From: an uncultured Bacilli bacterium
GTDB lineage: Bacteria > Bacillota_I > Bacilli_A > RF39 > UBA660
Assembly: GCA_947629315.1 (NCBI GenBank)
Contig: CANRDB010000001.1
Span: forward strand, 4,829 to 68,828
Length of the DNA stretch: 64,000 nt
Direction of reading: 5' to 3'
Shown: positions 23,121 to 23,288 of the stretch, in pieces
Numbering within the stretch: position 1 is the stretch's first letter
How the letters are laid out: every line of letters begins with the position of its first letter
Position numbers and translations under genes: made by a program
The notes under the pieces: generated by a model
What the model was told of the DNA's origin: nothing
Databases searched by the model: none
The model's input: only the letters and a program-made list of their open reading frames with translations

Positions 23121-23160
23121 TTTTGTGGTTTATGTCTTTGCAGCAACTGGTCCTACGGGG
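23121..23160. other. attR of IE-1
   Basis: TTTTGTGGTTTATGtctttgcAGCAACTGgtcctacgggg. The arm starts 1 nt after the Rec1 TAA stop. Confidence 0.65.
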
Positions 23161-23263
23161 GCAACTGGTGCAACCGGTCCTACGGGGGCAACTGGTGCAA
23201 CCGGTCCTACTGGAGACATTGGTCCTACTGGTGATGTTGGTCCTACTGGTCCTACCGGAGCAA
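23147..23263 (+). pseudogene. Collagen-like gene segment 2 of 4 (117 nt, no start or stop of its own)
   Basis: Reads (a)ct GGT CCT ACG ... = [38 protein letters not shown](T). It is flanked by the 3' ends of the convergent Rec1 and Rec2 genes. Confidence 0.7.
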
Positions 23264-23288
23264 CTGAACCTTATCTGTTTGTCAAAAT
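23250..23288. other. attL of IE-2
   Basis: cctaccGGAGCAACTGaaccttatctgtTTGTCAAAAT. The 10-nt core GGAGCAACTG is shared with attR2, and the arm overlaps the Rec2 stop codon. Confidence 0.7.

Follow-up and report, generated by a model that had tools for sequence, protein, structure and literature searches.

The collagen-like (Gly-X-Y, hereafter G-X-Y) coding DNA at positions 23143-23266 of the 64,000-nt stretch analysed here, which we call the window and whose coordinates and strands are used throughout, is a piece of a collagen-like surface-protein gene that has probably served small elements with serine integrases as an integration target. When all six frames were searched for G-X-Y runs, four co-linear plus-strand pieces of this gene were found, interrupted by three blocks termed IE-1, IE-2 and IE-3. 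A first-pass annotation of the window had described IE-1 and IE-2 within the gene, and both are present, but the third element (26149-29441) and the fourth gene segment had gone unmentioned. Segment 1 (18448-18703, plus strand) carries the start codon and a Cys-containing N-terminal region, then a short G-X-Y run and the first small beta-type domain, and ends with ...IPAGAT in the attL1 core. Segment 2, the stretch on which the first-pass annotation centred (23143-23266, plus strand), continues in frame with 39 G-X-Y residues and is an internal piece of the gene rather than a gene by itself. Segment 3 (26094-26148, plus strand) encodes 18 residues, with 45 nt between crossovers, the attR2 core at its start and the attL3 core at its end. 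Segment 4 (29442-29834, plus strand) comprises the attR3 core and a long G-X-Y block together with the second small domain, and the stop codon is located at 29832-29834. The conserved partner of this collagen-like gene family, a GT2-TPR glycosyltransferase gene, follows at 29840-30925 on the plus strand.

In silico removal of the three blocks yields an open frame of 807 nt including the stop codon, encoding 268 amino acids (aa) with zero stops or frameshifts, and the 798 nt previously given for the rejoined product must be corrected accordingly. In the rejoined sequence a long uninterrupted G-X-Y tract lies between non-collagen domains, as expected of a collagen-like (BclA-type) surface protein. 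With the rejoined protein as query, thousands of collagen-like proteins were found, of which the best full-length matches are 180-230 aa long and share one order of parts: the N-terminal Cys region and a short G-X-Y run come first, then an ITVGTTTTG...IP domain, then a long G-X-Y run and finally a C-terminal part. The same domain order is found in the uninterrupted homologues P0001 and P0005-P0011; homologues carry PF01391, and some also carry PF18573 (BclA_C). At two loci of other genomes (L003 and L007), the collagen-like gene is uninterrupted and the GT2-TPR glycosyltransferase gene lies directly after it, as in the window. An intact copy of this exact gene was not found in a collection of 5.8 billion proteins, in which the best match was 84% identical over 48% of the query, and the glycosyltransferase as query recovered no relative in the genome-collection scan. 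Each of the four pieces has stayed open and in frame, and the split gene is presumably off in the sampled population. A promoter and terminator scan of 18300-30000 gave counts at the level of shuffled sequence. Segment 4 also has a shorter counterpart: L001 (1100-1240, compared with window 29442-29700) encodes an identical glycosyltransferase protein next to a segment 4 with far fewer GDxGPTGPT repeats, which reflects either real repeat-number variation or assembly collapse.

Each of the three blocks consists of one large serine recombinase (LSR) gene and one cargo gene, and no strand is assigned to the blocks themselves. IE-1 (18704-23141; 4446 bp core to core) carries LSR1 (21123-23120, plus strand), a 665-aa protein whose gene stops about 25 nt short of the predicted AC crossover, and a 744-aa acyltransferase-3 family, O-antigen-acetylase-like cargo protein (18743-20977, minus strand; PF01757, 2.7e-22; phrog_6705 O-antigen acetylase, 4.6e-33). 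IE-2 (23267-26093; 2837 bp core to core) carries LSR2 (23282-24796, minus strand), of 504 aa and with its stop codon about 17 nt from the predicted crossover, together with a 342-aa cargo protein (24984-26012, minus strand). The latter has hydrophobic stretches and Zn_Ribbon_1 and DZR matches below the Pfam curated cut-off, and it is possibly a membrane protein. IE-3 (26149-29441; 3297 bp core to core) carries a 464-aa repeat protein (26257-27651, plus strand) that is rich in E, K and Q, is hydrophobic at its N-terminus and matches no known family, and LSR3 (27831-29420, plus strand), a 529-aa protein whose stop codon lies 21 nt before the AC. The recombinase gene of IE-2 is thus opposite in orientation to those of IE-1 and IE-3. 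The open reading frame (ORF) lists of the three elements contain no phage genes, and PADLOC gave no defence-system match for the cargo proteins.

All three recombinases match PF00239, PF07508 and PF13408 (Resolvase, Recombinase and Zn_ribbon_recom) above curated cut-offs, as well as the phrog_95 integrase (5e-84 to 6e-98). LSR1 and LSR2 are 54% identical in their N-terminal 230 aa and 29% identical in the remainder, and LSR3 is about 30% identical to either. The recombinase domain of LSR1 contains an insertion of about 140 aa (residues ~236-378) that is shared by its collagen-associated relatives of 650-710 aa and absent from LSR2 and LSR3. Exact-protein look-ups of RecA, LSR1, LSR2 and LSR3 found none of them on record, and an LSR3 scan of viral contigs gave no match. 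A phage-record search revealed no known phage link for LSR1, the best match being 37% identical and located on unannotated faecal records of 4-8 kb. Among the 4-8 kb human faecal records, MT837840.1, MT838759.1 and others encode proteins 31-37% identical to LSR1, and instead of phages these small records may represent LSR mini-elements that are free or were mis-binned.

The element boundaries have the usual features of serine-integrase sites, whose half-site logic and strict pairing rules are set out in PMC3783163. Cores were found by extending identity between the left and right ends of each element. On the plus strand, the ends of IE-1 share an 8-bp core, AGCAACTG, at attL1 (18696-18703, with AC at 18700-18701) and attR1 (23142-23149, AC at 23146-23147); those of IE-2 share 10 bp, GGAGCAACTG, at attL2 (23257-23266, AC at 23263-23264) and attR2 (26094-26103); and those of IE-3 share 4 bp, ACTG, at attL3 (26145-26148) and attR3 (29442-29445). 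Each attP was rebuilt from the outer ends of its element, and inverted symmetry was scored about every possible centre. The best dyad centre of all three is the AC of A-AC-TG, with scores of 15/20, 13/20 and 15/20 for attP1, attP2 and attP3, respectively; the mean for random centres in the window is 5.4/20 (sd 2.05), and a score of 13 is reached by only 0.06% of them. The rebuilt sites thus combine inverted arms about a non-palindromic central dinucleotide with short identity between attL and attR. The distal arm motifs are element-specific, being TTTGTG[GA]TTTATG in IE-1, ATTTTGACAA in IE-2 and AGTGCCACTTT in IE-3. Because this AC is the dyad centre and the ends of IE-3 share only 4 bp, we infer that strand exchange takes place at the AC. 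All crossovers then fall on the AC of an ACT Thr codon, which agrees with the single codon phase claimed earlier for IE-1 and IE-2. In the rejoined gene the AC centres are 117 and 45 nt apart; both spacings are multiples of 9, and therefore any attL/attR pairing keeps the frame and the G-X-Y register.

Symmetry is also present in the target. The first-pass annotation had proposed that G-X-Y coding DNA forms ready-made dyad-symmetric attB sites, and the sites of IE-1 and IE-2 support this: attB1 scores 11/20 (inner 9/12) and attB2 13/20 (inner 10/12), the two best values among the 33 in-frame Thr-Gly centres of the rejoined gene. These centres average 8.9/20, well above the window background, so G-X-Y DNA is intrinsically symmetric there. 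The sequence GGA-GCA-AC-TGG-TCC accounts for the symmetry at the codon level, as GGAGCA pairs with TGGTCC at 5/6 positions and GGA-CCA-AC-TGG-TCC would give 6/6. The codons themselves had been described as nearly self-complementary, which holds in part: GGAGCAACTGGTCC makes 5/6 pairs about the AC, and GGTCC and GGACC pair with each other, but GGTCCTAC taken as an 8-mer reaches only 2/8. A dyad match of 12/15 for attB2 was reproduced with the left half at 23248-23262 (ggtcctaccggagca) and the right half at 26102-26116 (tggtccagtaggtcc). The figure needs IE-2 to end at 26096, so the element meant was the middle block; attB2 as a join of segments 2 and 4 was rejected, since 12/15 is obtained only with the segment-3 right half. 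The third site, attB3, scores 6/20, and LSR3 is therefore independent of this symmetry.

Unoccupied copies of the core are present in the repeat as well. GCAACTGG occurs 9 times in the window against 0.65 expected, a number reached in 0 of 100 shuffles, and on the plus strand within the split gene it starts at 23143, 23161, 23188, 26097 and 29439. The two spare copies reported earlier in segment 2, at 23161-23168 (context ggggcaACtggtgc; dyad 8/20, inner 5/12) and 23188-23195 (dyad 9/20, inner 5/12), both on the plus strand, are exactly where they had been placed. However, they are partial sites, with an inner dyad of 5/12 against 9-10/12 for the occupied attB1 and attB2. They read GGGGCA-AC-TGGTGC, with TGGTGC in place of TGGTCC on the right side and the 8-bp core kept, and are 34/42 identical to attB2 and 25-26/42 to attB1. 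At best, such copies are candidate pseudo-sites, probably weak or non-cognate. G-X-Y look-alikes also occur on the plus strand at 31697-31858 and 38771-38815, where they are antisense to P/A/V/T-rich linkers of the minus-strand genes 30961-31899 and 36709-38907; the linkers contain GCAACTGG copies (31433 and 38765), and these antisense look-alikes are unoccupied.

The association of LSR1 with collagen-like DNA extends to other genomes. When representative genomes, one for each species, were scanned with aligned LSR1-type proteins, 80 loci emerged. Nearly all of them lie in metagenome-assembled genomes of rabbit, mouse or human gut origin that bear the labels uncultured Bacilli, Mollicutes or Tenericutes. 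With LSR groups assigned by BLAST identity, a P/T-rich G-X-Y run lies no more than 110 nt from the LSR stop codon at 42 of the 58 evaluable LSR1-like loci, compared with 1.2% of background windows from the same loci, 0/16 LSR2-like loci and 0/68 distant LSR loci. In the long LSR1-like group (L091-L154), the collagen-like DNA starts 12-75 nt, usually about 30 nt, past the LSR stop codon. A junction motif, as counted by our own regular expressions, adjoins 53 of the 58 evaluable LSR1-like genes and takes two forms. In the AC class (39/58) it reads ...[GC]CA-AC-NGGNCC... and the collagen gene is on the LSR strand; in the GT class (14/58) it reads ...GCA-GT-[AT]GGNCC... and the collagen gene is on the other strand. 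The coding strand of the GT class still ends in ...GGA-CCT-AC| (for example at L131), and the predicted crossover is therefore the same Thr-codon AC, with only the orientation of the element flipped. The underlying code for Gly-(Ala/Pro)-Thr-Gly-Pro, GGN-[GC]CA-AC-NGG-NCC, forms an inverted repeat about the AC of the Thr codon. Two orientation classes are what a near-palindromic target with a polar centre predicts, and they are the strongest support for ready-made dyad attB sites in G-X-Y DNA.

The metagenome loci L047, L048 and L050, at about 52% identity, have the same arrangement, and both ends are visible in L047 and L048. No LSR with more than about 68% identity to those of the window was recovered, and the collagen-like genes used by the LSR1 lineage, at 30-50% identity, are many and different. 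This lineage appears to be specialised on the collagen-like motif; the term collagen specialist applies clearly to it, and to LSR3-like enzymes on fewer cases (L100 and L171). Downstream of the occupied site, unoccupied in-frame sites with no more than 2 mismatches in 20 are present at 8 of 29 AC-class loci, and spare sites are therefore common. Together with the three elements in the window, the LSR1-like junctions and the stack at L100 described below, these loci support the earlier idea that a repeat gene acts as a multi-copy landing pad.

LSR2 has a different set of relatives. Its nearest ones are 40-42% identical over the full length by BLASTP and 54-59% in the best segment, and three of them (L156, L158 and L161) split an ABC-transporter ATPase gene at CAAACAGT[TA]GCT or CAAAGAGTTGCT, about 40-90 nt past the LSR stop codon. 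The target lies within ...Q[TR]VALIRTLA...PDILLLDE of the ATPase. On the LSR2 strand, the window junction reads GGTTCA-GT-TGCTCC, and a CAGTTGC core is common to the ATPase target and to attL2 read in this direction. The shared core suggests that IE-2 may belong to a lineage with another home site, one that met a look-alike core in the collagen gene.

Stacking of elements is found elsewhere. At L100, a single collagen-like gene holds a stack of three elements, and each of the three successive pairs of junctions is at AC. The first of these elements carries an IE-3-like arm (GTGCCACTT), another carries arms like those of IE-1 (TGTGGTTTAGG and TTGGTTTATG), and the third is 2.2 kb long and contains only the LSR gene. 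LSR-only elements of about 2.2-2.4 kb lie between collagen-gene pieces at L100 (10131-12345), L101 (~4936-7085) and L132 (~7724-10115), and these minimal elements resemble insertion sequences with the G-X-Y motif as their specific site. TnpX and TndX carry out excision and insertion by themselves, and the LSR-only relatives suggest by analogy that such enzymes may also manage both integration and excision alone. At three loci chosen by synteny (L171, L173 and L152), an LSR element lies in a collagen-like gene just upstream of a glycosyltransferase gene whose product is 68-72% identical to that of the window; the collagen-like gene is thus interrupted in several related genomes without obvious decay. 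The L171 element occupies the position equivalent to that of IE-3, at the start of the TGDIGPT block (L171 4172-4260 compared with window 29420-29470), with a right half of TGGTCCAACTGGAGATATCGG compared with TGGTTCTACTGGAGATATCGG in the window. Its LSR is 38% identical to LSR3, its attP arm is different and its glycosyltransferase is 72% identical, a combination that reflects either independent insertions at one hot site or element replacement. L174 was considered as an empty-site polymorphism and rejected, as its sequence starts with an adapter at the junction.

These observations are consistent with a simple mechanism. The near-palindromic Gly-(Ala/Pro)-Thr-Gly-Pro code would supply two half-sites and a central dinucleotide that sets polarity, the form that an LSR dimer needs. 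Such a dimer would bind its own attP and the matching site in the collagen gene and exchange strands at the AC. Recurrence of the motif along the gene would let elements with different integrases enter it side by side, and with several usable sites in a repeat gene, elements would accumulate. Exact excision of all three would restore the 268-aa protein because all three insertions are in the same codon phase. Each LSR probably acts only on its own sites, and cross-element deletions between attL1 and attR2 are likely rare or absent.

Several points weigh against integration into a ready-made collagen target. All sequences are metagenomic assemblies, and the junction-motif counts depend on the regular expressions that we chose. 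The closest relatives of LSR2 target the ABC-ATPase gene instead of collagen-like DNA, and the lack of dyad symmetry in attB3 means that symmetry is not needed by every integrase. Furthermore, neither the protein collection nor the viral-contig scans contained an attB or attP junction; the predicted attP1-3 junctions had no match in the viral-contig scans, which thus gave no sign of circular forms.

The integrity of the gene might instead be regulated, with elements that excise on cue, in a sporulation-type programme or by stochastic phase variation, and a stack that works as a multi-lock switch. We consider this unlikely, although part of the evidence is in its favour: the four open, in-frame pieces rejoin to the full architecture of the family, and where related genomes have this gene interrupted, no obvious decay is seen. 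The gene family also resembles exosporium BclA-type proteins paired with a glycosyltransferase, with a BclA_C domain in relatives, a resemblance whose basis we take to be bclA3-sgtA of Clostridioides difficile. Known precedents likewise have LSRs next to the att site (PMC5595907, PMC4191935, PMC5025042). On the other hand, no ORF of directionality-factor size was found in the ORF lists of the three elements, which hold only the LSR and one cargo gene each with intergenic gaps below 190 bp; recombination directionality factors (RDFs) are diverse, and one might be encoded in trans. Some relatives consist of the LSR alone in about 2.2 kb, the hosts are uncultured gut Bacilli with reduced genomes, and a scan of 39 window ORFs outside the split locus returned only a Germane-domain protein (13449-14405) and a weak ylxY-like match. 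The lack of an intact copy in the 5.8-billion-protein collection also speaks against regulated integrity, for which three independent excisions must coincide. A more elaborate version, in which the stacks form a programmable multi-lock on the surface fibres of gut Bacilli, with a fibre only when all elements are excised and with occasional cross-element recombination or re-insertion at spare sites giving heritable in-frame variants of triple-helix length owing to the AC crossover and codon phase common to all sites, is in our view quite improbable.

Combinatorial excision, as proposed in the first-pass annotation, appears very improbable. In this scheme the non-cognate pairs attL1 x attR2, attL2 x attR3 and attL1 x attR3 recombine to shorten the collagen by 39, 15 and 54 residues, with the spare GCAACTGG sites as further partners. 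Its arithmetic holds, as the 117 nt lost with attL1 x attR2 is a multiple of 9 and the product is in frame, and the 45-nt spacing behaves alike. The same central dinucleotide in all six sites makes any product ligatable, LSR1 and LSR2 are 54% identical in the catalytic region and have the core GCAACTG in common, and the spare sites resemble attB2 closely. However, the distal attP arm motifs differ among the three elements, and with an element-specific LSR and arm motif attL1 and attR2 are not a cognate pair. Identity between the LSRs is 30-54%, with only about 29-30% in their DNA-binding parts, and the ORF lists of the elements show no gene of directionality-factor size. According to PMC3783163, serine integrases do not recombine non-cognate site pairings, and recombination between attL and attR needs a directionality factor. 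The sole length variation observed, in segment 4 of L001, lies inside the repeat block, where slippage or assembly collapse is a simpler explanation. The last possibility, that G-X-Y repeats caused mis-joins and that the shared cores and symmetry merely reflect repeat composition, draws on the apparent origin of the window in a metagenome-assembled contig, as its RecA and glycosyltransferase proteins are 100% identical to proteins of an NCBI contig of 148,994 bp, and on the proneness of collagen-like repeats to collapse, as in the shorter segment 4 of L001, but is effectively refuted, since both ends of each element carry matching element-specific inverted arms in unique sequence (13-15 of 20), independent metagenome contigs repeat the attL1 junction (L176) and an identical attR3 junction (L001), so that the insertions are not an artefact of one assembly, dozens of unrelated assemblies have the same arrangement, and GCAACTGG far exceeds its expected number.

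The surroundings of the split gene contain other features of potential relevance to the cell surface. Downstream of the glycosyltransferase gene, a conserved block (32153-38907) that is also present in L171, L172 and L173 encodes a 312-aa P-rich protein, a 549-aa protein, a protein of about 565 aa with a weak Trypsin_2 match in its orthologues, and a protein of about 395 aa. A 732-aa clostripain-family (Peptidase_C11) protein comes next in the window and in L173, and a sortase gene is located at 39580-40512. This block may be a surface-protein processing locus. Upstream, a SecA/SecA2-like gene is divided between two ORFs (14652-15368 and 15400-18366). The first stops at a TGA after an A-run (ttaaaaaatga), and the second has no SecA N-terminus and a long extra C-terminal part. 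The split could be due to a frameshift, a sequencing error or a pseudogene.

The use of a collagen-like gene as an integration target by these elements has several implications. A coding repeat can be a multi-copy target when its code, here that for Gly-Pro/Ala-Thr-Gly-Pro, happens to be a near-palindrome with a polar centre. The loci provide dozens of natural attP/attB pairs with one shared core of about 14 bp in both polarities, which is material for studying how serine integrases read their sites, and one might speculate that they will help in choosing integrases for engineering, as similar coding motifs occur in other collagen genes. The arrangement explains why metagenome-assembled genomes of gut Bacilli often contain collagen-like gene fragments next to genes annotated as recombinases, and it makes testable whether surface-fibre genes are knocked out or reversibly switched. 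Earlier work already describes LSR elements that lie within genes, tandem arrays at one attB (PMC7192596) and multi-targeting LSRs (PMC10083194). In the limited literature searched, we found no description of an integrase lineage that targets a repeated collagen-like code, of several elements at separate repeats of one ORF, or of paired AC and GT orientation classes. PMC3158075 was considered as a prior description and rejected, as it concerns the annotation of a collagen-binding protein.

The gene-intervening elements of spore formers offer the first comparison. In gin (gerE of Bacillus cereus ATCC10987, with GirC/GirX), skin (sigK) and SPbeta (spsM), an LSR element, of non-phage or phage-derived kind, splits a coding sequence, a short core is present at both ends, and precise excision restores the ORF (PMC5595907, PMC4191935, PMC5025042). 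The window has the same basic layout, with an interrupted coding sequence from which exact in silico excision yields the intact 268-aa ORF, and gin resembles IE-1, IE-2 and IE-3 further in being a small element without phage genes. The differences are that three independent elements reside in one gene here, that a repeated motif takes the place of a unique site and that the target is a collagen-like repeat gene, a kind of target for which the literature searched gave no description. Moreover, the ORF lists of the three elements hold no candidate for an element-encoded RDF.

Phage integrases such as Bxb1, phiC31 and A118, and those in the catalogue of Durrant et al. 2022, have the same domain set and an attP with inverted arms about a non-palindromic dinucleotide (PMC3783163, PMC10083194). 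In these, as here, the integrase gene adjoins attP, and attB is a short site within a host gene. In contrast to phage integrases, the target motif described here occurs many times per gene and in many genes, a situation between the 'site-specific' and the 'multi-targeting' classes of Durrant et al. (PMC10083194), who call for a recombinase cluster at 90% identity to enter more than 3 target gene clusters in the latter case. Collagen is unmentioned in Durrant et al. 2022 and in the supplements searched (PMC10083194). The collagen-gene elements also differ from phages in being 2-7 kb long, in holding few cargo genes or none and in lacking phage genes.

Tn4451 and Tn5397 resemble the collagen-gene elements as small non-phage elements moved by one LSR (TnpX and TndX, respectively), which performs both excision and insertion at targets that resemble the element ends. 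However, LSR1-3 have no DUF4368 among their Pfam matches (E<=1e-3), their central dinucleotide is AC and not GA, and insertion is into a defined motif, about 14 bp long, of coding repeats. DUF4368 is typical of the TndX-like multi-targeting clade discussed in PMC10083194. Tandem arrays at one attB (Mageeney et al. 2020) are similar in that different elements become adjacent through reuse of an integration site (PMC7192596). In such classical arrays, later elements enter the att site regenerated at the end of an earlier element, whereas in the collagen-like gene each element sits in its own copy of the motif, with gene pieces of 117 nt and 45 nt between them.

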